Shown in pieces: positions 609-35,854 of a stretch of DNA of 64,000 nucleotides. The notes beneath the pieces were generated by a model that saw only the letters and a program-made list of their open reading frames with translations, was not told the origin of the DNA and made no database searches. Made by a program: the position numbers and the translations under genes. Origin of the DNA: an uncultured Acidobacteriota bacterium (GTDB lineage: Bacteria; Acidobacteriota; Thermoanaerobaculia; Multivoradales; SZUA-115); assembly GCA_963805975.1 (NCBI GenBank), contig CAWDVR010000003.1, positions 1 through 64,000 of the forward strand, read 5' to 3'. Positions within the stretch are counted from its first letter, which is position 1, and each line of letters opens with the position of its first letter.

Positions 609-2909
609 ATGAAGTTGTGGAACAGAGAACGAGGAAGGCTCCTGAGGGCGGTTTGGGGGCTCGCACTGGGGCTCTGCCTGGCTGGCACGGCCGAAGGAGA
701 TCAGCGGCGCGCCCTGCTGATCGGCATCGACGACTACCTGGGCGCCCGGCCGCCCGGCGCGGCCACTGGGAAGGTCACGGGCCGCGCGGAATGGCACAAC
801 CTGCAAGGCGCGGTCAATGACGTGTGGGCCCTGCGCGAGGTGCTCCTTGCCCACTATCGCTTCCGGCCCGAGGAGATCCTCCTGCTGACCGACCAGGCAG
901 CCAGCCGCCGGGCCATCCTGGAGGCTGTCGAGCGCCATCTGCTCGCTCCCGCGCAGCGGGGAGACGAGGTGCTGTTCTACTTCTCGGGCCACGGCTCCCA
1001 GCGCATCAACTCGCTTTCCGACGAACTCGACCATCGGGACGAGACCCTGGTTCCAGCCGACTCGCGAGCTGGCGCGGACGACATCCGGGACAAGGAGCTG
1101 CGGCGCCTCTTCAACCGCCTCCTCGACCGAGAGGTGCGGCTGACGGTGATCTTCGATAGCTGTCACAGCGGCTCCAAGGGCCGGGGCATGCCGCCCGGGA
1201 GCATGGCGCGGGTCTTGCCGAGAGATCCGCGCGACGTAGCCGACAGCTCGCCGGCCGGGCCCCGGCCCGAGGATCGCGGCGCCCTGGTTTTCTCAGCGGC
1301 CCAGGACTTCGAGCTGGCCTACGAGGAACGAGACGAGCGCGGCCAGATGCGCGGGGCTTTCTCGCTCGCCCTTCTGCAGGCGATCGCCGGCGGCGGGGAG
1401 GACGATTCCGCCGACGAGCTTTTCCTTCGCGCCCGTGCCAGGCTCCAGGCTGCCGCCGCGCGCCAGGAGCCCGTGCTGGCGGGTCCGGCGGAGCGTCGCG
1501 CGACGCCGCTGTTCGGCGCTGCGAGGGCCGGTCACGCGGCCGGCGGGGTGGTGGCCGTGCAGCGCCTGGAGGCCGACGGCACGGTGCTCCTCGAGGGTGG
1601 GTGGGCGAGCGGCTTGGCGGAGGGGAGCGAGCTCGAGCCGGCGATTGAGGAGGCGGGCTGCCAGCCAAGGCTCCGCGTCACCCAGGTCGAGGGCCCGGCC
1701 GCGAGTCGTGCGCTGATCGTGGGCGAGTCTCGGCAGCCGCTGGCAGTCGCGCTCGCCCCCGGCGCGCTCTTCCGCGTGGTCCAGTGGCGCATGGCGAGCG
1801 CTCCCTCCCTGCGCCTGTGGGTGCCGACCGCTTCCGAGCCCTGGGAGACGCTCTCGGCCTCGGCGAGCCAGCTGGAGCGCGTCACCCTGGCTCGCGGCTG
1901 GGTCTGGGTAGAAGACCCGGTGGCCCAAACTCCGACCCACGTGCTTCGCCCGGAGGGGGACGGCTGGAAGCTGGTCGAGCCGGCGGGCCGGGTCCGCGCG
2001 CTCGGTCCACGCCTGACGGCCGAGCGCGTCACGCGCGAGCTGACCCTGGCGCCGCCGCCCATCCGGCTCTTTTTCCACCTGCCGGCGCCCCAGGGCCTGG
2101 CGGCGATCGATCTTGGCGCGGACGCAGACCACAGCGCCATCGCCCGCATGCCTGGCCCCGAGGGGGCCGACTACTTCCTCGTCGGCCGCCAGGTGGGATC
2201 CAGGATCGCTTTCGCCTGGATCAGACCGGGAGCCGGTGCTGGCGACCAGGGCCGGCTCGCCGTGCCGCCGCGGAGCGAGTGGTGGCGCTGGCCGGCCCCC
2301 GAGACCGCCGCGGCGCTCGAGCAGGATGCTTTGCGCCTCGCCAAGACCCTCGCCTGGCTGCGGCTGCCTTCGCCGCCCGGAGGCGGCTTTCCTTACCATC
2401 TCGCTCTGAGGAGCGGAGAGGGAACGGAGCGACAGACTTCCGGCAAGCTCGCCGGGGGCTCGCAGCACGGTCTCCTGCTGTGGGCCCAGCCCGCGGAGAT
2501 CGTCTCCTCGCCGCTGCCTCGCTACATCTACGTCTTCGTCCTCGACTCCTGGGGCAAGAGCACTCTGCTCTTCCCGCCCCCCACCATAGGCAGCACGGAG
2601 AACCACTTCCCCCTGGCCCACGAGGGCCACGGTGCGCCGCCCGCGGAGATCGTCCTCGAACCGCAACCCTGCCTCGAGGTCACCGAGCCCTACGGCATCG
2701 ACACCTACTTCTACCTCACGACCACCCAGCCGCTCTCCAACCCGGCCGTGCTGGCCTTCCCTGGCGTACGCCAGCGCGGGCCCGGGGGCGCGACCTCCCT
2801 CGAGCGGCTGCTCGCCGACTGGGTGTCCAGCGAACGCGGGCAGCCGTGGTTCGAGACACCGGCGAGCTGGTCGCTCGAGCGCCTGACCTTCGAGACGGTG
2901 GCGCCCTAG
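609..2909 (+). CDS. Exported caspase-family (peptidase C14, metacaspase-like) protein with DUF4384-like C-terminal domain
   Basis: Signal peptide; RALLIGIDDY; catalytic FYFSGHG and IFDSCHSG; acidic DELDHRDE loop; GAFSLAL p10 motif; C-terminal YIYVFVLDSWGKSTLLFP; RBS gaggag. Confidence 0.9.
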   Translation: MKLWNRERGRLLRAVWGLALGLCLAGTAEGDQRRALLIGIDDYLGARPPGAATGKVTGRAEWHNLQGAVNDVWALREVLLAHYRFRPEEILLLTDQAASRRAILEAVERHLLAPAQRGDEVLFYFSGHGSQRINSLSDELDHRDETLVPADSRAGADDIRDKELRRLFNRLLDREVRLTVIFDSCHSGSKGRGMPPGSMARVLPRDPRDVADSSPAGPRPEDRGALVFSAAQDFELAYEERDERGQMRGAFSLALLQAIAGGGEDDSADELFLRARARLQAAAARQEPVLAGPAERRATPLFGAARAGHAAGGVVAVQRLEADGTVLLEGGWASGLAEGSELEPAIEEAGCQPRLRVTQVEGPAASRALIVGESRQPLAVALAPGALFRVVQWRMASAPSLRLWVPTASEPWETLSASASQLERVTLARGWVWVEDPVAQTPTHVLRPEGDGWKLVEPAGRVRALGPRLTAERVTRELTLAPPPIRLFFHLPAPQGLAAIDLGADADHSAIARMPGPEGADYFLVGRQVGSRIAFAWIRPGAGAGDQGRLAVPPRSEWWRWPAPETAAALEQDALRLAKTLAWLRLPSPPGGGFPYHLALRSGEGTERQTSGKLAGGSQHGLLLWAQPAEIVSSPLPRYIYVFVLDSWGKSTLLFPPPTIGSTENHFPLAHEGHGAPPAEIVLEPQPCLEVTEPYGIDTYFYLTTTQPLSNPAVLAFPGVRQRGPGGATSLERLLADWVSSERGQPWFETPASWSLERLTFETVAP

Positions 2910-2912
2910 CGG

Positions 2913-4028
2913 CTAGCCGCCGATCTGGGCCATTGCGCAACGGGGGATGTTGTACTCGAAGCGGTTGGCCGGCAGCAGGTCGAGCAAGTCGAGCAACGGC
3001 GAGGTGTCGGTCGGGGGCTCGGTGGTGGAGCGCGGGGCTCGCTCGACGGGCGGCAGGGCGGTCAGGCGGAAGACCGGGACCGGGCGCTGATGGCGCGGGG
3101 GCCGGTTGGCCAGCAGCTCGTAGAAGAGCTCGAAGTGATAGTCGACGTAGTCTTGCGGAGCTTGTGTCGGCCCCTGCTGGGCATACGGCACGAAGCTCTC
3201 CCGCGGCAGGTTGAGGACCGCGATCTCGACCACCCCGGCTTCGGGCGTGAGAGTCATGGTGCGGGCCGTCGAGCCGCCGAACGGCGTGGCCTGCACGCTG
3301 ACCTGCTGCCCCTCGATCTCGATCTCGACGACGACCACGTCGGCGGCGGCGCGGGGCCGGAACCCAGGCCAGGGCAGCGCCTCGGGGAAGGTGCGGAGCT
3401 CGACCGGGACGATGTCGTCCGGAAAGCCGCTCAGGCGGAACGTCTTCGCCTTTCCCTGGGTGAGCGGCCAGCGCGCCTTGATCAGATCCTTCTTGGGAGC
3501 CGGCTCGAAGACGTCGGTGTCCACGGCCTGCCAGGCCGGGTCGAGCCTGCCCAGGTCGACGACCCAGCCGAAGTCCTCGCGGTCGTCCCGGTCGTTGGGC
3601 ATGAGGCCTCCGGCGGCCGTCTCGCCCAGGTCGAACCGCTCGGAGTTGCGCGACAGGACCTGCAGGCTCGGCGCGGGCTGAGGCTGGCCCGGGTCGCCCG
3701 TCTGGAGCGTCAGGATGACGTTGTCGAGCTTCCACGAGCTGCCGTTGCGCAGCGCCTGCCGGAGCAGGTTCAGGGACTCCACCGGGTCCTCGGAAAGGGC
3801 CTTGGAGCCGAAGACGAGAGACGCGATGTCGGAGTCGGCGCTGCACTCTCCCTGGCAGCTCCCGGCGCGGGCCAGGAGCACGGGCTGATGGAGCGGCACG
3901 CTGTGCTCGCCGCAGCTCGCGTGGCCGGCGTGGCTGGTGTCCACGAGCAGCGCGGTCATCTGCTTTCCCGAAGGGTCCGGCACGAAGGCAATGAGACCGA
4001 GGAAGTAGATCCGCAGCATGAAGCTCAT
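2913..4028 (-). CDS. Hypothetical protein (371 aa) translationally coupled to the CHAT gene
   Basis: Starts MSFMLRIYFLGLIAFVP after RBS aaggaggg; the ATG overlaps the CHAT stop (ATGA); only this 3' part of the 1265-aa ORF has protein-like composition. Confidence 0.8.
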   Translation of the reverse strand: MSFMLRIYFLGLIAFVPDPSGKQMTALLVDTSHAGHASCGEHSVPLHQPVLLARAGSCQGECSADSDIASLVFGSKALSEDPVESLNLLRQALRNGSSWKLDNVILTLQTGDPGQPQPAPSLQVLSRNSERFDLGETAAGGLMPNDRDDREDFGWVVDLGRLDPAWQAVDTDVFEPAPKKDLIKARWPLTQGKAKTFRLSGFPDDIVPVELRTFPEALPWPGFRPRAAADVVVVEIEIEGQQVSVQATPFGGSTARTMTLTPEAGVVEIAVLNLPRESFVPYAQQGPTQAPQDYVDYHFELFYELLANRPPRHQRPVPVFRLTALPPVERAPRSTTEPPTDTSPLLDLLDLLPANRFEYNIPRCAMAQIGG

Positions 4029-7000
4029 TGTTCCCTCCTTGAGGACGGGCCGCCGAGCGAGGCGGCCCCGATCAGTTCGAACGAGGCCCAAACCCGTGGC
4101 GAACGCCTTCTGTCGTTGGGGCTCCGGAGCTCCAGGAGCTGGGCGGAGCGCAGCGCTTCCGCTGCGGACGCCCCCTGCCTCAGGTTCTCGTGGAACGCTC
4201 TCAGGAGCTCCACGGTGGACTGGTCGGGGACCTCCCACAGGCTGCCGAGAACCGCCGGGATGCCGGCGCCGAGGAGCGGCCGAACCAGATGCGACACTCC
4301 CTGGGCGCCGAGGTCTCCCCCCGCGGCGGAGCTGCACGCCGAGAGGACGATGATCCGTGCGCGGCCCAGGTCCAGCCCCAGGAACTCCTGGGCGTAGATC
4401 TCGCCGGTGGAAGCGGCCGAGGGCGCGAGCACCAGGTAGGAGCCGGCGGCTTGGCTGACCGCGTGGCCGGCGAAGTGGATGACGGTGTGGCGGCCTATCT
4501 CCTGGAGGAAAGCTTCCTTGGTTGCCTCGGCTCCCGTGAGGGTGATGGCGTCCGGGTAGAGCCGTGCAACCTCCTCGCCTTCGGCCGCAGCGCCGCGCAG
4601 CGGCTCGAGGCCCGGGAAGCGCGAGCGGTCGAAGGCGGGGCTGGCGACCACCAGGATGGAGGGCCGCTCCTCTCGGCCGAACCCGACGTCGCGCTGCTGG
4701 GCGAAGGCGTACAGGGTGGCGCTCGGTGCCACGGTCACCGAGTGGTGCTCGATCAAGAAGCTGCGGGTCCGCCGATCGCGCAGCGCGGCGAAGGGCATGC
4801 CTTGCAGGGCTGGGTCGGGCACGAACACGAGGTGCTCGCGCGGCTCGAGGTGCTCGCGGATGGGTTCGATCAGCAGCCGGTCGAAGGCGGTGAGAAAGGC
4901 TTCGATCGCGGTTTCGTCCGCCGGATCTTGGCGCGAGATGGCCTGGTGGAAGCCCGCGAGCTGAGCATCGAGCTCGCCCCGGTCCACCGGGTGGGCGAAG
5001 AGCCGCGTTCCTGTCCGGCGCACGGTCCAGATCAGCAGCCGATCCCCGCGCAGGGCATAGACGACGAGGACGGTGCCGGCGGCTGTCCGCCGGCGGATCT
5101 GGGCTCCGGTTAGAGGCTCCTCCGGCACGCGGAGGAAGCCTCCAACGGCCGACAGCGAGGGCTGGAGGTCGCCCACCAGGTCCAGGAGCTCCCGGCCCTG
5201 GAGCCGCTCCTGGTAGGTCAGCGCGTCCTCGGCACGCTCCTCTCCGGCGAGGAGCTCGACCAGCTCGGCGAAGGGTGCGGTCTGCTGGGCAAAGTAGCGG
5301 GGCCAGAGATCCTCGTGCTCGCCCCGCCGTCGCTGAGCGAGCGTCCTGCGCCACTCCTCCTCCACCGCGCTCACGGCCGCCTCTAGCGCCCGGGCGGCTT
5401 CCGCCGGCCGGGCGAGCTTGCGCAGGGCCCCGGCCGCGAGCAACAGGAGCCGCGCGCGGTAGACCGGGTACTGCACTTGCTCGAGCAGGTCGAGCGCCCG
5501 CTGGAAGAAGGTGAGGGCGAGCCCGGGATCGGCCGACATCGCCAGCCGCCCCTTGACCTCGGAGAGACAGATCTCGAGCGGCAGCCTGAGCTCCGGTTCC
5601 TCGACCTTCTCGGCCGCTCTCGTCGCCGTGGAGAGGTGGCGGCGCGAGCGCTCGACCTGCCGGCTCTCGAGGTCGTCGACGGCTCGCGTGCAAAGAGCGT
5701 TCGCCAGGTCGTAGGGGTTGCCGCCTTCTCGGATCGCGGCGAAGCGGCTCTCCTCGACGAGCTCGGCCGTCGGCGAGCCCGGGACAGCGGCTGCGGCCTC
5801 GCCGAGGATGCCGGAGCGATAGCGGGGCTCGCGCACCAGCGGGAGCCCCGCGAGTGCGCTCAGGCGGTGGCGCCAGGCGAGGTCCGGCTTGCCCAGCCGC
5901 AGGAACCGCTCGGCCAGCCGAGCGTGGATGCTGGCGGCGCTCTCCTCGTCGCCGAGCCGCTGGTAGCGCTCGAGCGCCGCGAGGTAGGAGTCGAGGCTGT
6001 CGAGCGGTCGCGACAGCGTCATCTGCGCGAGGCCCCTCAACCAGTGCGCGCGCGCCTCGACGCTTCCGTAGGACAGCTCCTCCGCCTGGCTCTCGAGAGA
6101 GGAAGCCTCGGCCAGCGCGGCGAGTGGACGATGCCGCAGGAAGGCGCAATGGGCATGGCCCAGGCCGGCGCGCAGGTGCATGGGGCTTCCGCCCTGGAGG
6201 AGGGAGTCCCTTGCGCTCTGGAACTCTGCCTCCGCGGTCGAATAGTCGTCCTCGGCCAGCCGCCCGGTGGCGCGGACGTAGGCCCGATGCCCCGCCAGGA
6301 GGGCCGTCCGGCGCCGGTCCGAGGGACCCTTCGTGGCCTCCTCGAACCGCTCGACGACGTCCCGAGGGAGGCGGTCCCCGGTCAGGGCCGCGAGCTCCTC
6401 GGCGATCCGCCCCGCCCTGGCCAGAAGCGCATCCGCATCGAGCAGCCGGCCTTGCTCGACCGCCTCGGCGCACTTCGGCAGGAGCTCTTCCTCGACGAGC
6501 TGCTTCGCCGCGGCCCTGAATGGAGAGACCAGCTCTCGGACCCGTTCGGGGGCAGGCAGGGCATCGCCGCGGCCCAGCTCGCTCTTGGCCGCCGCCCACC
6601 GCTCGGCGGCCGAGGGCCGGGCGAGGTGGTGGAGCCGCGCCCGGGCTTCCTCGGACTCGCGAGAGCCGGGGTCGAGACGCAGGTAGGCCTCCCAGCTCTC
6701 CCGGCTGCACGAGGAGAGGGAGAGGGCATCGCAGAGCAACCCGCGATTGAAGGACGCCTGCGGCAGGTGAGGCGCCAGGGCGACGGCCCGGGCGACGAGG
6801 TCCAGGGCCCGGACGAGGTCGGATGGCTGGTCCGCGCTCTCGGCCTGCATCATGTAGGCGGCTCCGAGGTCGTTCAGGAGCTCGGCGGGCGGCTTCGGCT
6901 GAGATTGCCTGAGATCTTCGAGCTGATGGATCACGGCTGAGACACGCTCCGGGTCGGCCAGGAGGAGGGCGCCTGCGCCGAGAGCCGGCGGCTGGGTGCC

Positions 7001-7276
7001 CACTTCCAGTTTGCGGTCCGTGGGCTTAGAACCCGGGCGCGCCCGCTTGGGGGAGCCGCCGGCAGAAACGTCCTCGCCCGGCCGGGGCTCGTCGCAGAGC
7101 CGCCACTCGGAGTCGAAGAGCCGAGGGCAGAGCGCCCGCGGCAAGGGCGGCTCGGCGGTGGCGTGCCGATCCGGAGGCGGCCCACAGCCCCACCAGCCGC
7201 CGAGGGCGAGGAGCAGCAGAAGGGACCTGGACGGGGCGGAGAGCGAGCGGTCTTCGATGGCTGAGCCCTCTGTCAC
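4025..7276 (-). CDS. TPR-CHAT domain protease, probable lipoprotein or membrane-anchored
   Basis: Hydrophobic N-terminus ending WWGC; TPR-like helices; CHAT motifs LVFVPDPALQGMPFAAL, IHFAGHA (His), VLSACSS (Cys), SLWEVPD, WASF. Confidence 0.92.
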   Translation of the reverse strand: MTEGSAIEDRSLSAPSRSLLLLLALGGWWGCGPPPDRHATAEPPLPRALCPRLFDSEWRLCDEPRPGEDVSAGGSPKRARPGSKPTDRKLEVGTQPPALGAGALLLADPERVSAVIHQLEDLRQSQPKPPAELLNDLGAAYMMQAESADQPSDLVRALDLVARAVALAPHLPQASFNRGLLCDALSLSSCSRESWEAYLRLDPGSRESEEARARLHHLARPSAAERWAAAKSELGRGDALPAPERVRELVSPFRAAAKQLVEEELLPKCAEAVEQGRLLDADALLARAGRIAEELAALTGDRLPRDVVERFEEATKGPSDRRRTALLAGHRAYVRATGRLAEDDYSTAEAEFQSARDSLLQGGSPMHLRAGLGHAHCAFLRHRPLAALAEASSLESQAEELSYGSVEARAHWLRGLAQMTLSRPLDSLDSYLAALERYQRLGDEESAASIHARLAERFLRLGKPDLAWRHRLSALAGLPLVREPRYRSGILGEAAAAVPGSPTAELVEESRFAAIREGGNPYDLANALCTRAVDDLESRQVERSRRHLSTATRAAEKVEEPELRLPLEICLSEVKGRLAMSADPGLALTFFQRALDLLEQVQYPVYRARLLLLAAGALRKLARPAEAARALEAAVSAVEEEWRRTLAQRRRGEHEDLWPRYFAQQTAPFAELVELLAGEERAEDALTYQERLQGRELLDLVGDLQPSLSAVGGFLRVPEEPLTGAQIRRRTAAGTVLVVYALRGDRLLIWTVRRTGTRLFAHPVDRGELDAQLAGFHQAISRQDPADETAIEAFLTAFDRLLIEPIREHLEPREHLVFVPDPALQGMPFAALRDRRTRSFLIEHHSVTVAPSATLYAFAQQRDVGFGREERPSILVVASPAFDRSRFPGLEPLRGAAAEGEEVARLYPDAITLTGAEATKEAFLQEIGRHTVIHFAGHAVSQAAGSYLVLAPSAASTGEIYAQEFLGLDLGRARIIVLSACSSAAGGDLGAQGVSHLVRPLLGAGIPAVLGSLWEVPDQSTVELLRAFHENLRQGASAAEALRSAQLLELRSPNDRRRSPRVWASFELIGAASLGGPSSRREQ

Positions 7277-7342
7277 CCGCGCCGGGCGGATGCATTCCTG
7301 GCTATAGTTTACGGTCGCGTGCGGTGACTGTTAAGATAACAA

Positions 7343-8005
7343 GTGCTTATCCTGTCCCGCTCTCCCCCGGGAACAAGCCGCGGACCCTCGAGGTCGGTCT
7401 CCTCCTCCACTCCCAGCAAGCTTGGTATTCGACTCGTGGCCGCGAAAGACGAAAAGTTCCGGCGACTCTTCGAGCAGTACTATGAAGACGTCGCGCGCTT
7501 CTTTGCACGGCGCAATTTCCCACGGGAGATCGCACTGGAGCTTGCACAGGAGACGTTCTTGCGGGTCTACAGGGGAATGGACAGCTACCGCGAGGATGCG
7601 AAGGCGCGGACCTGGATCATGGCCATCGCGACGAACCTGCTCTCCAATGTCAGGCGGCACGACCATGCCAAGGACCGCCATCTGGAGGTCAAGCCCCAGG
7701 ACTTCCCGGAAACCGAGCAGAACCCCGTCCGCGAGACGGCCGACACGGCCTATAGCGGGCCTTTCGAGCGGCTGTCCGACCTCGAGCGCCGCCTCCGGCT
7801 CCGCCGGGCCATCCTTACGCTGCCGCCGCGGATGCGTCAGGCGATCGTCCTGCGCATCGTCCACGAGTTGAAATACCGCGAGATCGCCGACGTCCTCGGC
7901 ATCACCATCGAGACCGTGAAGACCCTGCTCTACCAGGCGAAGCTCCGCCTCAAGGAGAGCCTGGGCCTGCGCGGGGACGCATCCCCGGAGGATGAAGGTG
8001 ACTGA
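7343..8005 (+). CDS. ECF-type RNA polymerase sigma-70 factor (true start may be GTG 7436)
   Basis: Region 2 ELAQETFLRVYR...RTWIMAIATN; region 4 LPPRMRQAIVLR...YREIADVLGITIETVKTLLYQAK. Confidence 0.92.
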   Translation: MLILSRSPPGTSRGPSRSVSSSTPSKLGIRLVAAKDEKFRRLFEQYYEDVARFFARRNFPREIALELAQETFLRVYRGMDSYREDAKARTWIMAIATNLLSNVRRHDHAKDRHLEVKPQDFPETEQNPVRETADTAYSGPFERLSDLERRLRLRRAILTLPPRMRQAIVLRIVHELKYREIADVLGITIETVKTLLYQAKLRLKESLGLRGDASPEDEGD

Positions 8006-8774
8006 GAAGCCGGAGCTCGCCACGGCGCTCGAGGCCCTCGCGGCCGAACCCGGCGATGGCCTCGGCGCGCCCAACCCCGAGGACGTGCTTGCATGGGTCG
8101 AAGGCAGGCTCGCTCCCGAAGACGCGGCCTGGGTAGCACGGCAGGTGGAGAGCGACCCCGAGCTCGCGCTGCTCGCCGACGACATGGCGAGCTTCCTCGC
8201 CGGCCGGCCGCTGGCGCAGGAGCCGTTCCTCAGCCCGGAGGAGAAGGCGAGCGGCTGGGCGGCTGTGGCCCCGCCGGTCGAGGTCGCCCCGTCCGTCTCA
8301 CGCCGGCTCTCGCCTCGAACGCTCTGGCTCCGGCGGGCCTTCGCCGTGGCAGCGGGCCTGGCGGTCGTGGCCCTGGGCGCGCGCTGGCAGCAGCAGGAGT
8401 CCCTTCGCCGTTTCGGTGAGCCCATGCCCAATGCACTGCTGCTCGTCGACCCCGTGGAATCGGCGCGCGGCGTGGGAGGAAAGCCGCAGGAGGTCCCCCT
8501 GCCTCCAGGACCTGCCGTCCACGTCCTGCGGCTGCGGCTGATCCACCGCCCGGAGCGAGAGGAGCTGCGGCTGGAGATCCGCCGGGCCGGGCAGACGGCA
8601 TCCCCTCCGCTGTGGGCCGCGGACGGCGTGCGCCTGGAAGAAGGCGAGACCGTCAGCCTCCGGCTGGGCGGCAACTACCTGCCCCCGGGGGCGTACGAGA
8701 TCGTGCTCCTCGAGCGGGATGCCTCCACGACCCGGGAGATCGAGCACTACCGTCTCATCGTGCCACCTCGGTAG
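7992..8774 (+). CDS. Putative membrane-spanning anti-sigma factor
   Basis: Overlaps the sigma stop; N-terminal degenerate zf-HC2-like segment (PEDVLAWVEGRL..., no His/Cys); one TM helix (AFAVAAGLAVVALGA); beta-rich C-terminal domain ending LPPGAYEIVL. Confidence 0.7.
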   Translation: MKVTEKPELATALEALAAEPGDGLGAPNPEDVLAWVEGRLAPEDAAWVARQVESDPELALLADDMASFLAGRPLAQEPFLSPEEKASGWAAVAPPVEVAPSVSRRLSPRTLWLRRAFAVAAGLAVVALGARWQQQESLRRFGEPMPNALLLVDPVESARGVGGKPQEVPLPPGPAVHVLRLRLIHRPEREELRLEIRRAGQTASPPLWAADGVRLEEGETVSLRLGGNYLPPGAYEIVLLERDASTTREIEHYRLIVPPR

Positions 8775-13300: not shown

Positions 13301-13589
13301 GGCCCTCGGCGAAAGGAGCGGCGGCGACGAGATTGTTGGCCTCACCCGCTCCTTCCTCTACGCCGGGAGCCCCGGTGTGCTCTCCACCCTCTGGAGCATC
13401 GCAGACCAGCCCTCGCGCGAGCTGATGCTCGCCTTCTACCACCACCTCCTCGCCGGTCAGGCCGCCGCGGATGCGCTGCGCTCTGCCCAGCTCCAGATGC
13501 TGCGTGGCGGCCAGTACGCCGACCCCTACTACTGGGCCGCCTTCACCTTGACCGGAGATCCGCAAGGAAAGTGGGGAGGCGGTCGTTGA
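10331..13589 (+). CDS. Exported TPR-CHAT protease interrupted by a +1 frameshift near 13121-13127 (sequencing error or pseudogene)
   Basis: Signal peptide MRVPKAAVTAALIGLLA; TPRs; AFAYSERARARSL; LVLVPHGPLHYLPFAAL; the catalytic LHVAAHG, VLSACQT and YYWAAF motifs lie in the shifted frame 13026-13589. Confidence 0.88.
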
Positions 13590-16568: not shown

Positions 16569-16620
16569 GTGACACCACCGGCCTCGCCGGTTAGTGCGCC
16601 GAACAGGAGAGAGGTCTGAC

Positions 16621-21624: not shown

Positions 21625-21634
21625 CGCGCCAGCT

Positions 21635-26512: not shown

Positions 26513-26952
26513 CGCGCATTCCTCCCTGTCTGGCTCACGTAACGGCTGTTCGCGCCGAGAAGGCCGGCCGACAGCCCGAGGCCCGAGCCGACGACCACCC
26601 CTCCGACGCCGTAGGCGATGACCGCCAGGCTCTGGCTGTTGAGACCCGGGATGCCGAAAGCCGCCAGGACCAGCAGCGTGATGATCCCCAGGTCGAGGAT
26701 GACCACCTGAGTGACGACCGACCAGGGGCTCCCGCCATGGACGTCGCTCGCCAGGTCCCAGGTCTCCAGTTGCCGGCTGCGCCGGCGAAAGGCCCAGCCT
26801 CCGACGGTGAGACCGAAGAGCACGGAGAGACCGATCCCCAGGGCGAGGGGAGCATGGCGGTCACCGAGGTCCTGGCAGCCGGTCACGCTGAGGCACGCCA
26901 GGACCAGGAGCCCTGCGCTCGGATGGGCAAGCTGTCTCCAACCCACGGACAC
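26509..26952 (-). CDS. Small integral membrane protein or lipoprotein, first gene of the tubulin-actin operon
   Basis: RBS ggaggagg; lipobox-like LSVTGC; three further hydrophobic helices; stop overlaps the next ATG (ATGA). Confidence 0.7.
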   Translation of the reverse strand: MSVGWRQLAHPSAGLLVLACLSVTGCQDLGDRHAPLALGIGLSVLFGLTVGGWAFRRRSRQLETWDLASDVHGGSPWSVVTQVVILDLGIITLLVLAAFGIPGLNSQSLAVIAYGVGGVVVGSGLGLSAGLLGANSRYVSQTGRNAR

Positions 26953-27126
26953 CTCCTCCGTCGCGGGGCGACGAGCTGAGCAAAGTCATCGAGGACCGGG
27001 GACCGCCGGCCAGGCGGCCCTCGTCTCCAGCCCGATGTAGACCCCGTGCCGGGCCATTTGTTGGGCTGCGCGCGGGTCCCAACAAACCATCCGGCGCGGG
27101 GTCTGTAGATCGCAGAGCAGAAGCCC

Positions 27127-28437: not shown

Positions 28438-28485
28438 CACCGCCCCCGGCGGGTCCCTGCGGTGCGATCTGGAAGGGGGGTGCGA

Positions 28486-30510
28486 TCAGGAAGGGGCGCG
28501 GATGGAGAACGTTTCGAGGTGGGTGCTCAACGCGCCGGCGGAGACCACGATGCGGCCGCGGCGGCGAATGGTGAAATCGTCGAAGAGCACCGCCAGCGGA
28601 CCGTGAAGCCGCGGCGCAGTGCGCGTTTCCCAGGCCCGGTCCGCGACTGAGCACAGCGGCTGGAAATCGAGAAACTCTTCGCTCGCCACGAGCTCCAGGA
28701 TGCCCAGGCCGGGCGGGGCAGCCCGGTACAGGGCGGGCAGGAGCCGCGGCACGCGGTCCCCCGGCATCATGGGCTCCTGGGCTCCCCGAGGCGGCCACAG
28801 CACGTCGATGCGGCCATCGGGCACCAGGTCGAGGAGGGCCAGATGGGCGGGCTCGCGCCCTGGCCAGATACGGATCCGGAAGTAGGTCCCGAGCGGCAGC
28901 TCCAACTGGCCGCCGGGCCCCAGGAAGCGGGCCCGCGGAAGCGGCGTGACGGTGCACCCGGAGAGGGTCACCCACTGGGGATCGCCACAGGCGGCGACCT
29001 CCACCGGGACGACTTCGAAGCGGGTGGCGACCCTCTCGTCCGTGATCCGCAGGCGCCGCAGGTAGCGGCTCCGTGCCAGGTCCTCCAGCCGGCGCGCCAC
29101 CGCCACCTCGGCGGAGCCGCGCGCCAGCTTCCAGGGACCTACCAGGCCGGCGCCGGTCTCGGTATCCGTGATGGTGACCGAGATCTCCGCGGCCGGCCCT
29201 TCGTCGGTCCACAGCACCTCGAGGTCCGCGGCGTCGCGGACCAGCTCCACGGCGGCCACCCGGGCGAGAGTCGGGGCGAGCGAAGCAGGCGGGAGCTTGC
29301 CGGCGAGGCGCACCCGGAGCCGCAGGTCGCCGAAGTTGTAGGCGGTCGCGAAGACTCGCGCCGCCTCGAGGTCGGCCGCCGGCACCGCCTTCTCGAGCTC
29401 TGCCACCGCCTGCTGGGGCGAGCTCGCCACGATGCGGCCGGCGGCCAGCCGGGTCGCGGCCTCCGGCCGGGAGGCGCCGGCGCGATGCACCTCCACTTCG
29501 CTTCCGGAGGTGAGCCCGGCGAGCTCACCGGGCTGGAGGACGAGCTGCATGCCCCCTGAAAGCACCTCGTGCACCGCGAAGAAGGCCTCCTGCGGCACCG
29601 CCCGGCCGTTGAACAGCGCGGTGTCCAGCCCTCCCTCGGCCTGGGGCTCCTGGCCCCGGCAGCAGGAGGCGAGCTCGCGGCTGAGCTCCTCGAAGAGGCC
29701 GCGGTAGGACAGGGTGAGCGTCGAGCTGGAAAGGCTGCGCGCCAGGGCCCAGGAGAAGGCGCCGGCGGGCTGCTCGTGTACGACGTTCGTCTCGTACGCC
29801 AGCTCGTCGGAGCGGGCGGCGGAGAACACCACCATGGGGGCAAGCGATGCGCCCTGCGGCGGCGAACCGCGCTCGCGGAAGGCCGTTGCGAAGTCCGGCT
29901 CGCGCGGGCCCGGCGACGGCCGCGGCTCGCCGATGGGGTCGGAGCCGCGCGACGGCAGGTCGCTGCGCGTTCCGGTGCCCGAGAAGCAGGAGTCGAGGAA
30001 CACCACCACGTTCCCGGTGGGCCCCACCTTGAGGCGCAGCCGCTCCAGAAGCTCGCCCAGGCGGTCGTCGCGCAGGTGGAGCTCTCCCCGGTAGGCAGGG
30101 CCGGGCTGGCGCGGCGCGTCGTAGGGGGCCAGGGCCTCGTCGTAGCCGTCGAGCTCGTCGCCGCTGTCGTCGGTCAGGCGCTGGCCGTGCCCCGAGTAAT
30201 AGAACACCGCCACGTCCCCCGGCTGCGCAGGCGCCAGCAGGTGCCGCTCGAAGCCGGCGACGATCCCCGCTGCCGTGGCCTCGCGGTCGCGCAGCTCGGT
30301 CACGCGATCGGCCTCGAAACCATGCCGCGAGAGCGCTTCGCGCACCAGCGAGAGGTCCCGGGCCGCATGGAGTTTCCACCACCCGGAGCGGGGAGCGTAG
30401 TCGCCTACCCCGACGAGCAGCGCGCGGTACGCGGCCCCGGAAGGCACCGACCGTTCGCCACAGCCGGTGCAGGCGAGCAGCAGGCCGAGGAAGAGGAGCC
30501 GGCGCCTCAT
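28486..30510 (-). CDS. Caspase-family lipoprotein with DUF4384-like C-terminus
   Basis: MRRRLLFLGLLLACTGC lipobox; RALLVGVGDY, FYYSGHG, DELDGYDE, FLDSCFSG; ATG overlaps the CHAT stop. Confidence 0.9.
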   Translation of the reverse strand: MRRRLLFLGLLLACTGCGERSVPSGAAYRALLVGVGDYAPRSGWWKLHAARDLSLVREALSRHGFEADRVTELRDREATAAGIVAGFERHLLAPAQPGDVAVFYYSGHGQRLTDDSGDELDGYDEALAPYDAPRQPGPAYRGELHLRDDRLGELLERLRLKVGPTGNVVVFLDSCFSGTGTRSDLPSRGSDPIGEPRPSPGPREPDFATAFRERGSPPQGASLAPMVVFSAARSDELAYETNVVHEQPAGAFSWALARSLSSSTLTLSYRGLFEELSRELASCCRGQEPQAEGGLDTALFNGRAVPQEAFFAVHEVLSGGMQLVLQPGELAGLTSGSEVEVHRAGASRPEAATRLAAGRIVASSPQQAVAELEKAVPAADLEAARVFATAYNFGDLRLRVRLAGKLPPASLAPTLARVAAVELVRDAADLEVLWTDEGPAAEISVTITDTETGAGLVGPWKLARGSAEVAVARRLEDLARSRYLRRLRITDERVATRFEVVPVEVAACGDPQWVTLSGCTVTPLPRARFLGPGGQLELPLGTYFRIRIWPGREPAHLALLDLVPDGRIDVLWPPRGAQEPMMPGDRVPRLLPALYRAAPPGLGILELVASEEFLDFQPLCSVADRAWETRTAPRLHGPLAVLFDDFTIRRRGRIVVSAGALSTHLETFSIRAPS

Positions 30511-33500
30511 CGGCTCCCGGTTCCACGCTCTGCCAGGCCCAGGCCGGGATCTCCGGTGACGGCGAACCCCGCCCAGTAGTAGGGCGCCTTGTACCCGCGG
30601 TCTGCGATCAGCGTCGCCTGGGCCTGGCGCAGGGCCTCGGCCACCGGCGCGCCTGCAAGGAGGCTCCGGTAGAAAACCTTGACGAGGAGCTCGGAAGCGG
30701 GATCGTCGATTTCCCACAGCGTCGCCGTGACCGCCCTCGCACCGGCATAGAGAAAGGCGCGGATCATTCCCTCGATCTCGTCCCCGCCGGCACGCCGGCC
30801 CAGGCCCGTCTCGCACGCCGAGAGCACCACCAACGGCCGCTGGTTGAGGCGCAGCTCGTCGAAGATCTCACCCATCTCGAGGTGGCCGTCCTGGCCCTCG
30901 TCCTCGGCCAGCGCCAGGTAGCTGTTCCGCGGCTCTTGCTCATCCAGGACTCCGTGCGCGGCGATGTGCAGCAGGGTCAGGGAACGGGCCGCGCCGCGGA
31001 GCGCCGACTCCTTCGCCTCATCCCCCAGCAACGCTTTCCTGTGCAGCAGCTCCGCCACCTGGCGCGCCTCCTCCCGCGCCGCGGGCAGCGGCCGGAGCGA
31101 CGAGGTCGTCGGGTCCCCCAGGACCAGCGCTTCCGGTTCTCCTGGCCGTGCCTGGCCCTGCCACACCAGCAGAGCGCTGGCACTGGGGAGCAGGCTCAAC
31201 GTGAGCTTCTGGCCGAGGTAGGTGTGGGTCTGCGGGTCGAGGAGCGCGGCAAACGGCAGCTCGTGGAGCGCGTCGTGCGGAAGGAGGAGGAGCCGCCGGG
31301 TCCCCGGCGCCAGCCCGAGCGGTGCGATCAGCTCGCGGTAGAGCTCCGCGCCCAGGTCCTCGACGGAGATCGTCTCGGGAACGTCGACTCTCTTCGTGTT
31401 TCCCTGGCCCATGGGGCTGGGCTTGGTGGCCACGGCAGCGCGGAACTTGCGAACGCTCTCGGCCAGGTCGCGACGCGGCAGCTCCAGCTCCCGCAGCCGC
31501 CAGGTCTCTCGCTCGACCACCCAGGCCAGGGTCTTCTCCGGCAGGGTGAAGAAGCTCACCAGGGTGGTGCCGGCCGACAGCGCACGCTGGACCCGCGGGA
31601 GGTCCGCCACGGCCGCCGTCGCCAGCTCGCTGTAGCCTGGGTGGGTCAGCTTGAGCCGCAGCAGAAGCTCGTCGAACCGGGAGCGCTCCGCCTCGATGGC
31701 GCGCGCGAGCTCCTCCGGCTCCGCCTCGGTAGACGTCTCGAGCGACTTCTCCAGTCTTCGGATCTCGGCCTTGGAGAGCTTGAGGGCGCGCAGCAGCCCG
31801 GAGTCCACCCCCTCCTGCGGATCGGGCTGGAGTCGTCCCAGCCAGCGCATGAGCGAGAGCGCGCGGGCACGCTCGGCGACAGCGAAGGCCTCGGCCGGAT
31901 CTTGGGAACGCAGGAGGAGCCGCAGGAGGGTCTCGTAGGCCTCCCGCGCGCGGCCAGAGCGGAGCAGGTCCAGCCCGGCGATGCGGCCGCTATCCGCCGC
32001 GTCCTCGTAGGTCTTCACCCACTTCCGCGCGAGCTTCAGGGCTGCGTCGCGGTCGGGGATGGCGAGGATCGTCTGGGCAAGGAAGCGTTCCGCCTGGGTG
32101 CGGCCGGGAAGCGTCGCCGCCGTGGACTGCTCCAGCACGGCGATCATCCGCTCTGCCGCCTCCTTCGGATCCCGGCCGAGCAGGGCCTCGGCCGTGCCTG
32201 TGATCGCCTCGGAGTCCTCGGCCTGGAGCACCCCTTCCCGCTCCAGGATCGCCTGCACGGCCGCCCAGCCCGAGAGCACGGCCTGGGGCGACGGCGCTCG
32301 GCGAAGGGAGTCGAGGATCGCCTTGATCTCCGACCGGCCGCGAGCGGAAACGTTCAGCTCCTCGAGCACCCGGAGGAGATCCGCTGTCGCATCTCCCGTT
32401 CCGCCGCCCTGGTAGATTGCCTGCAATACCTTGCGCTCGGCCTCCATCTCTCTTGCTCTTGCTGTCGGCGCGCCACTCGGGTTCGGTGGGGTCTCCTCGA
32501 GATCTCCGACGATGCCTGAAGGAATGCCGAGCTGCTTCTGAGCGGTATCGGCCAGAGTACGGATGGCCACCGCCAGCTCGGGGTTCGGATAGTCGCGCAG
32601 CAGGTTCTCGGCCTCCAGGGCATAGGCGAGAACCTTCTCCGGTCGCTCTGCGCACTGCGCGATGGCGCTGACCTGGACCAGGCATCGAAGCCGCGTCGGG
32701 GACTTCTGGAGCGTGGCGAGAAGGGCCTCGGCGCGCGACAGGAGCTCTCTCTTCGGTGCGAGGCCGGAGCTGGGCAGGAGCAGGCAGCGGCTCGACAAGG
32801 CGTCGAGATACTCGAGGGCGTCGCCGAGGCGTTCGGCCGCTTGCAAGGCCTGGCCGTTCCATCGCAGGGCCTGGTCGTTCTGTTGGGCGTCGCGCTCCAG
32901 GTCGCAGAGGCTGACCAGGGTCTTGGTGCACAGGCGCAAGGACTCCGGAGAGGCTCGCGGACATTCCTCGCCGCCCAGCAGGGAGAGCGCCGAGGTCAGG
33001 TGCTCCCTCGCCTCGCCGACTTTTCCCTGTTTGGCGGCCGACTTGCCGAGAAGGAGCTGCAACGCGGCCTCCAGGCTTCCGCCCAGGTCGCGGGCCAGTT
33101 CCAACGCACGCAGGCTCTGCCGGTCGGCCGCGGCGTAGTCGCCGCGGATGAAGGCCATCTCGCCCAGCGTGACCGTCGCCATCGCTTCGAGGGCTCGGCC
33201 GGCCAGCCCGGGCTGCGCCGCGGGCGGCCAATCGAGCTCGATCCCATGCAGGGACATGCCCAGCAGGTAGTCGGTCGGCTCCGGCGGGTCGGCCGGCGCA
33301 TAGACCGCCCCTCGCACCTGCCGGGCGGAGGCGAGCGCGCGGCCCAGGTCTTCCTCGGCCTGGGAGTAGGCGCCCCGGCCGTACGCCAGCTTCCCGCACT
33401 TGAGCGCGACCGTGGCCGCCGCCGTCGCGTCGTCCGGAGACAAGAGCAGGGCGAGCGCTTTTCGGATCTCGGTCTCCCCGCGAGCGAGCTCGCCCGTGGT

Positions 33501-33740
33501 CTCGAGCTGATCGGCGAGCAGGATGAGGAGCTGCGCCTCCTCTCTGCGGTCCCCGGCCTGCCGCGCGGCGGCGACTTCCTGCTCGATCGCGGCGAGAGGC
33601 GCACCGATGGGCCACGGTTTCGCCCGCGGAGCCCGGTCGGGCGGCGCGCTCTCGGAGCCGCACCGCGCCATGAGGAGGCCGAGAAGGAGCACCACGATGG
33701 GCCGGCCGACCGGTGCACCGCGAAGCCGACCGCTCCTCAT
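30507..33740 (-). CDS. TPR-CHAT protease, probable lipoprotein
   Basis: IVVLLLGLLMARC; TPRs; AFAVAERARA; LLLPHDALHELPFAAL; LHIAAHG; VLSACETG; YYWAGF. Confidence 0.92.
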   Translation of the reverse strand: MRSGRLRGAPVGRPIVVLLLGLLMARCGSESAPPDRAPRAKPWPIGAPLAAIEQEVAAARQAGDRREEAQLLILLADQLETTGELARGETEIRKALALLLSPDDATAAATVALKCGKLAYGRGAYSQAEEDLGRALASARQVRGAVYAPADPPEPTDYLLGMSLHGIELDWPPAAQPGLAGRALEAMATVTLGEMAFIRGDYAAADRQSLRALELARDLGGSLEAALQLLLGKSAAKQGKVGEAREHLTSALSLLGGEECPRASPESLRLCTKTLVSLCDLERDAQQNDQALRWNGQALQAAERLGDALEYLDALSSRCLLLPSSGLAPKRELLSRAEALLATLQKSPTRLRCLVQVSAIAQCAERPEKVLAYALEAENLLRDYPNPELAVAIRTLADTAQKQLGIPSGIVGDLEETPPNPSGAPTARAREMEAERKVLQAIYQGGGTGDATADLLRVLEELNVSARGRSEIKAILDSLRRAPSPQAVLSGWAAVQAILEREGVLQAEDSEAITGTAEALLGRDPKEAAERMIAVLEQSTAATLPGRTQAERFLAQTILAIPDRDAALKLARKWVKTYEDAADSGRIAGLDLLRSGRAREAYETLLRLLLRSQDPAEAFAVAERARALSLMRWLGRLQPDPQEGVDSGLLRALKLSKAEIRRLEKSLETSTEAEPEELARAIEAERSRFDELLLRLKLTHPGYSELATAAVADLPRVQRALSAGTTLVSFFTLPEKTLAWVVERETWRLRELELPRRDLAESVRKFRAAVATKPSPMGQGNTKRVDVPETISVEDLGAELYRELIAPLGLAPGTRRLLLLPHDALHELPFAALLDPQTHTYLGQKLTLSLLPSASALLVWQGQARPGEPEALVLGDPTTSSLRPLPAAREEARQVAELLHRKALLGDEAKESALRGAARSLTLLHIAAHGVLDEQEPRNSYLALAEDEGQDGHLEMGEIFDELRLNQRPLVVLSACETGLGRRAGGDEIEGMIRAFLYAGARAVTATLWEIDDPASELLVKVFYRSLLAGAPVAEALRQAQATLIADRGYKAPYYWAGFAVTGDPGLGLAERGTGSR

Positions 33741-35854
33741 GGCCGAGCCCTCCTTGCTTCCGTGCCCGACCCTCGTGGCTCGACGGTCAGTACGATCGCG
33801 CTCGTGCTGCTGGCGCCGGTTTCGAAGTGGGCTTCACCCTTGGCTCCCACGCCGTCCAGCAGGGCCGCCAGGGGACCCAAAGGCCCGTGCGCCCCGGTGC
33901 CCCGCGTCTCGCCCTGCGGCCAGACTCCTTCGGCCGAGACGAAGGGCCGCAGGTCGATCGGGCTTTCGGTCGCCAGGAGCCAGACGACCTCCGTCCCCAA
34001 CGGCTCCGTGATCTCGTAGAGGACCGGCAGCTCTCGAGACTTCCCCGGTGGCAGTGGGGTCGGATCGGGATGCCTTGGCTCGGGCCAGTAGAGCCCGATC
34101 CTGCCGTCGGCGGTCAGATCGAGGACGCTCAGGTGGGCTGGCAGCCGCCCGCGGTTGGTGACCCGAAGCTGGAAGAGGTCTCCGACGTTCCAGATCCTCT
34201 TTCCTTCGCCGCGGCGCTTGGTGGCGAGCGGCAGCCGGGTGATGTCGCACTCCGAGAGGGAAGGCCGCCCTCGGGGGCAGCCGGTAGCCTGCACCGGGAC
34301 CATCTCCACCTTCACGTCGAGCTCGGGTGTGCGCAGCGCGAGGCCGCGGAAGTAGCGATTGCGGGCGAGATCGAGCAGCAGGCGGGTGATCTCCCCGGGC
34401 AGGTCGTCGCTCGTAGCCGGCGTCGGGGGCAGGATGGGAACCCGCCGGTCCTCGGTGTAGACCTCGACCAGTGGCTCGGTCCCGGCCGCGGCGACGACCA
34501 CGTCCGCGCCGTCGTCGACCTCTTCGAACGTGGCCGGCTGTAGGTTCCAGCGCTCCCGCAGCCGCTCGGCCAGGCGGGGCTCGACCCCCGCCGCCAGCCG
34601 CACGCGCACCCGCGGCCCGGAGAAGCTCCATGCGGTCACGAACGCGCGGCCGCGGAGGATCTCGCGCCGCTCCCTGGCTTCGTCGAGCTCGACCCTCGCT
34701 TCGAGGAGGGAGCTCTCCTCGACCTCGCCGTGGGCAAGGAGCGTCTCCGGTTCGGCGCTCGCCGCCCCGGCCCGGTGGATCTCGATGCGCGCTCCCGTCC
34801 GGAGGCCCACGAGAGAGCCGGCGGCGAGCGTCAGGTGGCGCCCGTCCGGCTCCACGCCGCTGACGCGGACGAAGGGGTTCTGCGCGACGAAGGTCCCGGC
34901 GAAGAGCCGGACATCCACCTCGCCGTCCACCTGCGGGCGGTTCTTCACGCGCGCCGCCATCTTCCACTCGACCCGCTCGAAAAGGGTGCGGTACGTGGCG
35001 CCGGCGTCGATGGTGGAGAGCTCCTGAGCGAAAGCGTAGGAGAGCGAGCCCACGGGCCTGCCCTGCTCATCCCTCGTCTCCCAGGCCACTTCGTCGTGCG
35101 AGGCGGCGGAGAAGACCACGTAGGGCGCTTCATCCACCGGGCCGTCGCGTAGCGCGTCGCCACGTCTCCGGGCAGGCTCCCAGAAGCCGCCGGCCTCGTC
35201 GCGGCCCGAGGCCTGGGCGCGCGGGAGGCCGATCGGGGGAGCTCCGCCCCGCCACCGGGAGAAGACGGTGTCCTCCTCGCCTCGCGGCGTACCGGAGAAG
35301 CACGAGTCGAGCAGCACCACGACGTTGCCTCGTTTCCCCACTTTCTCCTGGAGCTGCCAGACCCAGAGGTTCACAGTGTCGTCGCGCAGGTGTCGTTCGC
35401 CGTGATAGCCGCCCGCGGACGTGCGCGGAGCGTCGTAGGGGACGATGGCCTCGTCGTAGCCGTCGAGCTCGTCGCCATCGTCGTCCGTCACCTGCTGGCC
35501 GTGGCCCGAGAAGGCGAGCACCACGACGTCTCCCGGCTGGGCAGAGTCGAGGAGCCGGTCACGAACTGCCTCCTCGATGCCGGTGCGGGTGGCGGCCGGA
35601 CCGGAGAGGACCGTGAGGGTCGCCAGGCCGCGCTGCTCGAGGGCTGCGCGGAGATGAGTCACATCGTTGTCGGAGTGGATCGACTGCCAGCCCGTTTCTG
35701 GGGCGTAGGAGGAGATGGCAATGAGAAGCACGTGGAGCTGCGGCTGTCTCTCCGCGATCAGGGTGCTGGCCGAAAGCTCGAACCCACCAAAGGCAAGCCC
35801 CAGACAAAGGTAGATAGGAACGCCCAAGCGGACGGATGTGCTGCTCTCGCTCAT
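33737..35854 (-). CDS. Exported caspase-family protein with DUF4384-like C-terminus
   Basis: Signal-like N-terminus; AFSGHGQQ, DELDGYDE, LLDSCFSG; paralogous to 28486-30510 and 609-2909. Confidence 0.9.
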   Translation of the reverse strand: MSESSTSVRLGVPIYLCLGLAFGGFELSASTLIAERQPQLHVLLIAISSYAPETGWQSIHSDNDVTHLRAALEQRGLATLTVLSGPAATRTGIEEAVRDRLLDSAQPGDVVVLAFSGHGQQVTDDDGDELDGYDEAIVPYDAPRTSAGGYHGERHLRDDTVNLWVWQLQEKVGKRGNVVVLLDSCFSGTPRGEEDTVFSRWRGGAPPIGLPRAQASGRDEAGGFWEPARRRGDALRDGPVDEAPYVVFSAASHDEVAWETRDEQGRPVGSLSYAFAQELSTIDAGATYRTLFERVEWKMAARVKNRPQVDGEVDVRLFAGTFVAQNPFVRVSGVEPDGRHLTLAAGSLVGLRTGARIEIHRAGAASAEPETLLAHGEVEESSLLEARVELDEARERREILRGRAFVTAWSFSGPRVRVRLAAGVEPRLAERLRERWNLQPATFEEVDDGADVVVAAAGTEPLVEVYTEDRRVPILPPTPATSDDLPGEITRLLLDLARNRYFRGLALRTPELDVKVEMVPVQATGCPRGRPSLSECDITRLPLATKRRGEGKRIWNVGDLFQLRVTNRGRLPAHLSVLDLTADGRIGLYWPEPRHPDPTPLPPGKSRELPVLYEITEPLGTEVVWLLATESPIDLRPFVSAEGVWPQGETRGTGAHGPLGPLAALLDGVGAKGEAHFETGASSTSAIVLTVEPRGSGTEARRARP

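Follow-up and report, generated by a model that had tools for sequence, protein, structure and literature searches.

The DdvA/DdvS system of Myxococcus xanthus pairs a sigma factor of the extracytoplasmic function (ECF) type with a single-pass anti-sigma factor that is fused to a periplasmic TPR-CHAT protease (PMC11506125). A site-1 cut in the linker followed by cleavage by RseP was proposed; in its passages on DdvA that report gives the autoproteolysis itself as a proposal only, with the signal not known and the cut not shown, and describes DdvS/DdvA as lying in its own island, with a regulon that includes a cyclic oligonucleotide-based antiphage signalling system (CBASS) and type III CRISPR (PMC11506125). 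The anti-sigma part of DdvA is a CHCC zinc-binding domain, and its CHAT is without the three-helix motif that separase and craspase have. In the cytoplasmic SAVED-CHAT/PCaspase system of Haliangium ochraceum, which is tied to Cmr1-6 and gated by cyclic triadenylate (cA3) via SAVED, a CHAT cut activates a broad caspase (10.1101/2023.06.23.546230). Craspase (Csx29-Csx30-CASP-sigma) is likewise cytoplasmic and is RNA-guided; its TPR-CHAT protein cleaves a partner dedicated to it and releases a sigma factor (PMC10028731; described in PMC11506125 and 10.1101/2023.06.23.546230). Here we analyse the first 64 kb of contig C3 (CAWDVR010000003.1) from the genome of an uncultured Acidobacteriota bacterium (5.36 Mb in 6 contigs). 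This stretch, hereafter the window, encodes five caspases and three TPR-CHAT proteins beside an ECF sigma factor together with a putative anti-sigma factor, and holds two conserved protease modules, A and B.

Three further descriptions bear on these genes. The ECF54 context of Actinobacteria places an ECF sigma factor beside a TPR-CHAT protein, with proteolytic control proposed and, in the passages that describe it, a subtilase and no anti-sigma factor (PMC7826278, PMC8999054). The EACC1- and EACC2-caspase conflict systems have caspases near the membrane, with ECF sigma factors in EACC2 neighbourhoods (PMC7159879, PMC8195603). Bacterial metacaspases with an N-terminal transmembrane (TM) segment or signal peptide, and caspase-FGE fusions, have also been described (PMC3501461); the word CHAT does not occur in the main text of that paper, and its passages on these proteins make no link to a sigma switch. 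We found no description of exported CHAT-caspase modules in the literature searched; subscription papers and supplements may hold one.

An earlier sequence-only reading had taken the eight proteases as a single island forming a candidate extracytoplasmic proteolytic cascade. Its protein assignments stood: all five caspases, named here by one end coordinate of each gene, exceed the PF00656 cut-off for Pfam Peptidase_C14 (E 5e-21 for 609, 4e-19 for 16568, 2.5e-17 for 30510, 4e-18 for 35854 and, just over the cut-off, 1e-4 for 19312), and the three TPR-CHAT proteins match Pfam CHAT (7276 at 2e-63, 33740 at 2e-69, and 10331). The catalytic His and Cys motifs are present in all eight, the dyad of 10331 lying in another frame as assembled. 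The ECF sigma factor was confirmed by Pfam; the anti-sigma factor has no Pfam match and is assigned by position and homology. We rejected the single island. The proteases instead fall into two conserved modules and a set of passengers, split by an unrelated operon of ~9 kb (19,334–28,437), and two of the genes are broken as assembled. We propose that modules A and B may form a CRISPR-independent cut-and-activate relay outside the cytoplasm, a reading that we regard as evenly poised and in which we infer all cleavages and their order. We favour it because of the linkage of the genes, the clades to which they belong, the fusions found among them and the invariant Arg positions described below.

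Module A comprises five genes. A predicted exported, metacaspase-like caspase (609..2909, forward strand; Pfam, alignment A4) carries H128, C185 and R192 and a long C-terminal region. On the reverse strand follow open reading frame 2 (ORF2; 2913..4028), a leaderless protein of 371 aa, and a TPR-CHAT protein (4025..7276; H938/C981), which is likely a lipoprotein, has an uncertain start codon and belongs to the ORF2-linked CHAT clade. The ORF2 start overlaps the CHAT stop, and ORF2 is translationally coupled to the CHAT. The ECF sigma factor (7436..8005, forward; Pfam Sigma70_r2 and r4_2) diverges from the CHAT, its start being aligned to homologous loci with an alternative at 7343, and adjoins the gene for the putative single-pass anti-sigma factor (7992..8774, forward). 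Position 1 of the window is a contig end, 1–608 precede the first caspase and module A may extend past this end; no overlap with other contigs of the genome was found.

This arrangement recurs in related genomes. Among 27 loci of ORF2 homologues (two own loci and one weak match were left out), a CHAT adjoins ORF2 in all 27, and a caspase lies within 1.5 kb in 21. Twenty of the 27 were extended, 19 from 15 genomes of family f14 together with L277. All 19 extended f14 loci hold the CHAT, ORF2 and a 609-type caspase with N-termini that are hydrophobic by eye, and in 18 of them an ECF and anti-sigma pair stands head-to-head with the CHAT, the 19th being interrupted by a contig end. A 19312-type caspase is present in five of the 19 and in L013 from another family, as an accessory member of module A in relatives. 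In L258–L273 and L275 a small lipoprotein of ~125 aa with a YG.G.Y motif and a C-terminal Cys directly follows ORF2.

The sequence-only reading overlooked ORF2; no other gene is linked as tightly to the sigma-associated CHAT. The ORF2 family has 57 homologues (58 proteins including ORF2 itself), is present in 23 of 151 genomes of the class and has no name; it has no match in Pfam, NCBIfam or PADLOC and no usable Atlas match. The names of the homologues suggest that this genome belongs to Thermoanaerobaculia (Acidobacteriota). The AlphaFold2 (AF2) model is beta-rich and confident, with a predicted local distance difference test (pLDDT) score of 86.7 and a predicted template-modelling score (pTM) of 0.90. 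Foldseek returned no match in the PDB at E 0.001, and the best VIA Z score was 2.1; the protein may still belong to a known fold family. We considered the hydrophobic N-terminus of ORF2 as a signal peptide and rejected it, as the model places beta-strands there at pLDDT 96. The family conserves Cys pairs and His residues, ORF2 is duplicated in L290, and no longer fused form was found among 8000 candidates, which is weak evidence. ORF2, the constant partner of the module A CHAT clade, is likely a ligand, regulator or substrate of that CHAT.

The closest precedent for module A is DdvA/DdvS, which the earlier reading also missed. As in that system, an ECF sigma factor stands beside a single-pass anti-sigma factor and a TPR-CHAT with a His-Cys dyad. 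Unlike DdvA, the CHAT and the anti-sigma factor of module A are separate, divergent genes, and ORF2 and exported caspases are added. The window anti-sigma factor has no CHCC zinc domain, and neither it nor its f14 homologues show a His/Cys zinc motif; its TM hydropathy is modest (1.6–1.7), and its assignment draws on an alignment and on a homologue, L003, with zf-HC2. The fused architecture was found only in the relative G100 (L293:5674-10221), where a single polypeptide comprises zf-HC2, TM, TPR and a CHAT of the same type and the next gene is an ORF2 homologue (hhalign 97%), which ties the split module A cassette to the DdvA architecture. DdvA itself was absent among the PDB sequence matches.

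Module B consists of a CHAT gene that overlaps two paralogous caspase genes, all on the reverse strand. The first caspase (28486..30510; Pfam, AF2, fold search) is a predicted lipoprotein with H108, C175 and R182, the Arg standing at Cys+7, and with a DUF4384-like C-terminus in its family. The TPR-CHAT protein (30507..33740) carries H929/C976 and a hydrophobic N-terminus. The second caspase (33737..35854) has H118 and C185, Arg at Cys+6, a weak DUF4384 match and the weakest signal peptide of the five. The CHAT and both paralogues recur in G007, G028 and G222, and the order CHAT-caspase-caspase is found in metagenome loci L152 and L155. Elsewhere in this genome, a single polypeptide joins signal, TPR, CHAT and caspase (C2:96056-101002), and the 10331 CHAT is 43–58% identical to this CHAT-caspase fusion. 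In a quick tree that did not include G222, support for a clade of the module B caspases and the C2 fusion caspase is 100%. A clade supported at 0.994 unites the CHATs 33740 and 10331 with that of the fusion, all of them caspase neighbours, and is separate from the ORF2-linked one; members of this caspase-linked clade (10331, 33740, the C2 fusion, L004, L048, L274, L276) lie directly beside exported caspases and have no sigma pair of their own. A scan of the genome contigs with the single protein 35854 gave no match, a scan with an alignment gave matches, and a plasmid search returned only distant caspases.

Compared with the other described systems, the window resembles SAVED-CHAT/PCaspase in that a C14 caspase with a His-Cys dyad adjoins a CHAT and a sigma factor lies nearby, and differs from it in that the three window CHATs carry TPR or no sensor family with no SAVED match, the proteins are predicted to be exported, there is an anti-sigma factor and the genome gave no RAMP match. 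On the Csx29 model of craspase, which has a cut-off of 300 bits, 33740 reaches 44.7, and the missing RAMP match sets the genome apart from craspase as well. With ECF54 the window shares an ECF sigma factor encoded beside a TPR-CHAT, whereas the published descriptions of ECF54 have a subtilase, no anti-sigma factor and no caspases (PMC7826278, PMC8999054). All five window caspases score 30–84 bits against the EACC1-type model, below its cut-off of 140. The modules are like a merger of DdvA/DdvS and SAVED-CHAT/PCaspase that fails the defining features of both (fusion, zinc motif, SAVED and CRISPR).

The same Arg-Gly/Ser motif, in which the Arg mostly precedes a Gly, occurs on the anti-sigma factor and the caspases and is a candidate CHAT cut site. 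In the anti-sigma linker, past the TM segment, an Arg (R159 in the window) is present in 22 of 22 aligned rows and is followed by Gly in 19. In the caspases, an Arg at Cys+7 is found in all 19 module A (609-type) proteins and in 153 of the 155 loci of the 30510 family that could be parsed, from 160 loci in all. The AF2 model of 30510 (mean pLDDT 87.6) has residues 179–182 below 50, one of only three such stretches. We extended this comparison to all 69 caspase matches outside the genome (67 loci, three without a match to the profile), which gave 76 caspase ORFs. The window caspases 609, 30510 and 35854 fall in a broad CHAT-linked clade (support 89), in which 25 of 30 parsed members have Arg at Cys+7 against 0 of 20 outside it, with 6 members and 20 outsiders unparsed. 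A CHAT lies within 8 kb of 26 of the 36 clade members and of 7 of the 40 other caspases. The H. ochraceum PCaspase is reportedly cut at R153, which is C146 +7.

Export of the caspases and CHATs is likely, as predicted from an N-terminal hydrophobicity heuristic and from orthologues. The signal or lipoprotein-like N-termini previously described for all eight were recovered by the heuristic in seven, with 7276 failing; the heuristic is not specific: internal windows pass in 231 of 2000 cases, Met-starting genes in 734 of 1911 and the N-terminal strands of ORF2 proteins in 56 of 58. Orthologues are the stronger evidence: proteins of the 30510 family have variable, signal-like hydrophobic N-termini in 39 of 49 cases, 11 of the 12 parsed 7276-type CHATs show a lipobox-like motif, and the 35854 orthologues in L004, L048 and L288 have clear signal-like N-termini. 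The envelope location suggested earlier is likely.

At the genome level, we counted 22 CHAT matches (20 genes, two of them split), 6 listed C14 matches, 56 sigma region-4 matches and 4 M50 protease matches. Local inspection added two caspase domains, 19312 and one fused behind a CHAT on C2, for a total of 8. Each of the 8 has a CHAT no more than 7 kb away, where CHAT density would predict ~6% per caspase, and each belongs either to the window or to a cluster of paralogues at C2:93-121 kb. That cluster (G000:C2:93,000-121,000, G000 being this genome) encodes a 609-type caspase, the CHAT-caspase fusion, more CHATs, an anti-sigma/ECF pair, ORF2 and a small secreted protein, and then Ser/Thr kinase, FHA-like and vWA-like genes. 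An ECF and anti-sigma pair lies within 7 kb of 13 of the 20 CHAT genes (chance about 14%; the profiles were trained on ten of the counted cassettes), a caspase for only 8 of the 20. CHAT expansion is lineage-wide, in 30 of 31 genomes, with 18–29 in each of 7 family members and 18–54 in many relatives, and CHAT number alone is ordinary for the lineage. Short Pro/Asp-rich ORFs stand right after sigma-linked CHATs at G000:C4:459,287-459,505, L005:9683-9874, L019:12504-12779 and L065:8095-8394; they are possible peptide substrates or inhibitors.

The setting here is CRISPR-independent, as had been suggested: the genome has no RAMP match (a control matched in 5 of 14), and Cas and CBASS models had no match among the 14 window proteins scanned, a further difference from DdvA/DdvS. 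Nor are the genes unlinked in related genomes, where the gene sets of the modules recur. Some relatives share with DdvA/DdvS a type III CRISPR context. In G017 (L005, C2) and G002 (L065, C77) the split ECF/anti-sigma/exported TPR-CHAT cassette lies inside type III-B and III-D CRISPR loci, which also carry a CHAT-SAVED protein and a signal-less caspase from the same broad clade (support 89); it is in such a setting that activation of a caspase by a CHAT was demonstrated (10.1101/2023.06.23.546230), and this counts in favour of the relay. L005 and L065 are candidates for DdvS-like control of CRISPR in Acidobacteriota.

Based on these observations, we outline how the favoured relay would operate. 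In each module, the CHAT would be an Arg-specific trigger that cuts a short flexible loop on its neighbours. Binding of a signal to the TPR region would bring the catalytic dyad of the CHAT into line, which is how craspase works and what has been proposed for DdvA (PMC11506125). The lipoprotein CHAT of module A would then cut the anti-sigma linker at R159, and an RseP-type protease would complete cleavage and free the ECF sigma factor. A second target of this CHAT would be R192 (Cys+7) of the exported caspase, where cleavage would switch the enzyme on. In module B the CHAT belongs to a separate clade that has no sigma factor of its own; it would activate both exported caspase paralogues at this same loop, and these would act as broad-acting amplifiers. 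A promoter scan found one sigma-70-like site against 0.5 expected and, by eye, no common motif upstream of the proteases, and because of this a sigma factor driving the caspases is not supported. As to the role, our best guess is defence or an envelope damage response; defence is a reasonable guess by association.

A more tentative extension, which we hold to be distinctly less probable than the relay itself, is that TPR-CHAT receptors sense danger outside the cell, possibly ORF2 with its new fold released from lysed siblings, and cut one Arg-Gly code on the anti-sigma factor and the caspase zymogens, giving a transcriptional alarm and an amplified extracellular protease burst; in several phyla, CHAT and trypsin would stand in for each other as initiators. 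Trypsin cleaves after Arg or Lys. The 30510 family spans Acidobacteriota, Bacteroidota, Gemmatimonadota, Myxococcota and proteobacteria; among its CHAT-less loci that we sampled (n=31, one more dropped), a trypsin-family neighbour was found in 5, which also speaks for the relay itself, and astacin, papain-like and weak M48 neighbours occurred as single cases. An exported Arg-loop caspase is paired with a trypsin or trypsin-ankyrin gene in L077, L080, L088, L114 and L146, and with a small ORF and a CHASE2 protein in L073, L076, L086 and L127.

Several observations weigh against the relay. In module A, ORF2 and the CHAT have no caspase within 1.5 kb in 6 of the 27 loci, and L277 and L290–L293 have none even in longer stretches; the 19 extended loci come from one family and are non-independent. 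In the window the 609 caspase has the opposite orientation to that in the usual operon, and there is no counterpart of the small lipoprotein that follows ORF2 in 17 of the 19 loci. A leaderless ORF2 would conflict in topology with an exported CHAT, and none of the readings considered here accounts for the missing leader. Many caspases beside such cassettes in relatives lack a signal peptide and could not meet an exported CHAT; as these signal-less caspases pair with cytoplasmic CHATs, not every caspase near a cassette is the target of an exported one. Two of the eight protease genes are broken as assembled. In the 30510 family, of which 76 loci had a 5-kb flank on each side, a CHAT lies within 5 kb in only 22 of these (within 500 bp in 16; 31 of 160 overall), and the Arg, kept in 153 of 155 despite so few CHAT neighbours, does not need an adjoining CHAT. 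Nor is this Arg the only invariant one: alignment A2 has 4 other such columns and A4 has 9.

The caspases may cut their own Arg, as they keep the acidic loop and the Asp residues of type I metacaspases. This leads to a rather doubtful alternative, in which the CHAT is a site-1 protease for the anti-sigma factor only, as a split DdvA, and the caspases, as outputs or neighbours of this switch, self-activate at the Cys+7 loop as Ca2+-dependent, Arg-specific metacaspases. It would account for the 54 of 76 well-flanked 30510-type loci without a CHAT within 5 kb and for the ECF/anti-sigma pairs near 13 of 20 CHAT genes against caspases near only 8 of 20; the acidic loop aligns with that of yeast and Candida metacaspases, and the top matches in the 30510 fold search are metacaspases and MALT1. 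It fits less well with a CHAT clade that has no sigma pair of its own and lies directly beside exported caspases, or with the fusion of CHAT and caspase in one polypeptide on C2. Yeast Yca1 has no Arg at Cys+7, and the lack of a common promoter motif upstream of the caspases also counts against it.

It is unlikely that ORF2 is the true substrate or effector of the module A CHAT, whether as a Csx29-Csx30-like pair, a toxin or a leaderless alarm protein freed on lysis, with the caspases and sigma factor as accessories. ORF2 is the tightest partner of the CHAT (27 of 27 loci), is coupled to it, is kept after the fused anti-sigma-CHAT and is duplicated in L290, and linked protease-effector pairs are a known pattern (10.1101/2025.11.14.688446). 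Without a leader peptide, however, ORF2 is not obviously in the compartment of the CHAT, its conserved Cys pairs and His residues could equally mean a folded enzyme or a binding protein, and module B would be left unexplained. Less probable still is that the region is a by-product of CHAT and caspase expansion, with independent modules and decaying copies in a variable region and no cross-talk. The 18–54 CHAT matches in many relatives, the start at a contig end, the two frameshifted genes, the inverted caspase, the unrelated 9-kb insert and the mutual identity of the five window caspases (only 31–44% over aligned parts) are what this would predict; the intact recurrence of the gene sets across families f1, f2, f7, f11 and f14 and the presence of a CHAT near all 8 caspase domains of the genome are not. 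Such independence is probable for module A with respect to module B and for the 16568 caspase, but not inside a module. Of what the sequence-only reading had interpreted as one cascade, the linkage, the CRISPR-independence and the likely envelope location are retained, with a candidate cut site added, and the single island is not.

Passenger genes (the FtsX-like permease, the signal-bearing protein and the PEGA-domain protein below) and further protease genes lie between the modules. An FtsX-like permease (8747..10153, reverse; Pfam FtsX) separates module A from the 10331 CHAT (10331..13589, forward; Pfam CHAT, tree), which has a signal-like N-terminus. A signal-bearing protein with a weak match to the MetA-pathway family, which is outer-membrane barrel-like, follows (13732..14631, forward; PF13557, E 5.5e-5). 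The 16568 gene (14628..16568, reverse; Pfam, tree) encodes a caspase-FGE-sulfatase fusion with a lipobox-like LLAC and an FGE-sulfatase match at E 2.5e-37; we rejected it as a cascade member, as it has no Arg at Cys+7 and lies outside the CHAT-linked caspase clade. A PEGA-domain protein with a signal-like N-terminus (16621..17436, forward; Pfam) and the 19312 caspase with an FG-GAP-like C-terminus (17295..19312, reverse; Pfam and homologues in relatives) complete this stretch. Between them and module B lies a block (19334..28437; ORFs, Pfam) that encodes a 1625-aa protein, a vWA protein and three smaller proteins, each either membrane-bound or exported. We rejected this block as belonging to the system; of 150 class genomes, only 3 gave matches to it, all weak and partial. 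The N-terminus of the 1625-aa protein is weakly tubulin/FtsZ-like (E 0.012), and by eye it has two DxG motifs that are actin/Hsp70-like. With its small TM proteins and divergent vWA protein, the operon may recall tubulin-vWA conflict systems; it falls in an Atlas cluster of 363 members without names, at 0.96, and is rare in the class.

Two of the protease genes change frame. In the 10331 CHAT this occurs at ~13,122–13,129, just ahead of the catalytic His, so that the dyad lands in the other frame. In the 19312 caspase it occurs near 18,620, just past the Cys, and the FG-GAP-like C-terminal part becomes ORF 17295-18485; in the relative L260 the caspase and FG-GAP parts are intact in one ORF. 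A genome-wide codon scan gave 190 candidate frame switches among 4120 called genes and caught the one at 13,125 and missed that at 18,620. Given this number of candidates, assembly error is a plausible cause of both; programmed frameshifting was rejected, as the genes are intact in relatives. A second frameshifted CHAT gene (G000:C6:55,518-56,355) breaks at nearly the same profile position as 10331 (about 133–134), with a different local sequence.

The described CHAT-to-caspase cascade is cytoplasmic and CRISPR-gated, whereas the modules reported here are predicted to act outside the cytoplasm. The window contributes the five-gene ORF2 module, a caspase-dedicated CHAT clade with its fusion, and the statistics of Arg at Cys+7. 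The modules add a widespread family of exported caspase zymogens, as well as the ORF2 family, for which the model is confident and no matching fold was found. They also split the functions of DdvA into separable proteins with named residues for study (R159 of the anti-sigma factor, R192 and R182 of the caspases), which makes the periplasmic CHAT as a site-1 protease a directly addressable question. If the more tentative extension were true, bacteria would have in these modules a counterpart of initiator/effector zymogen cascades.

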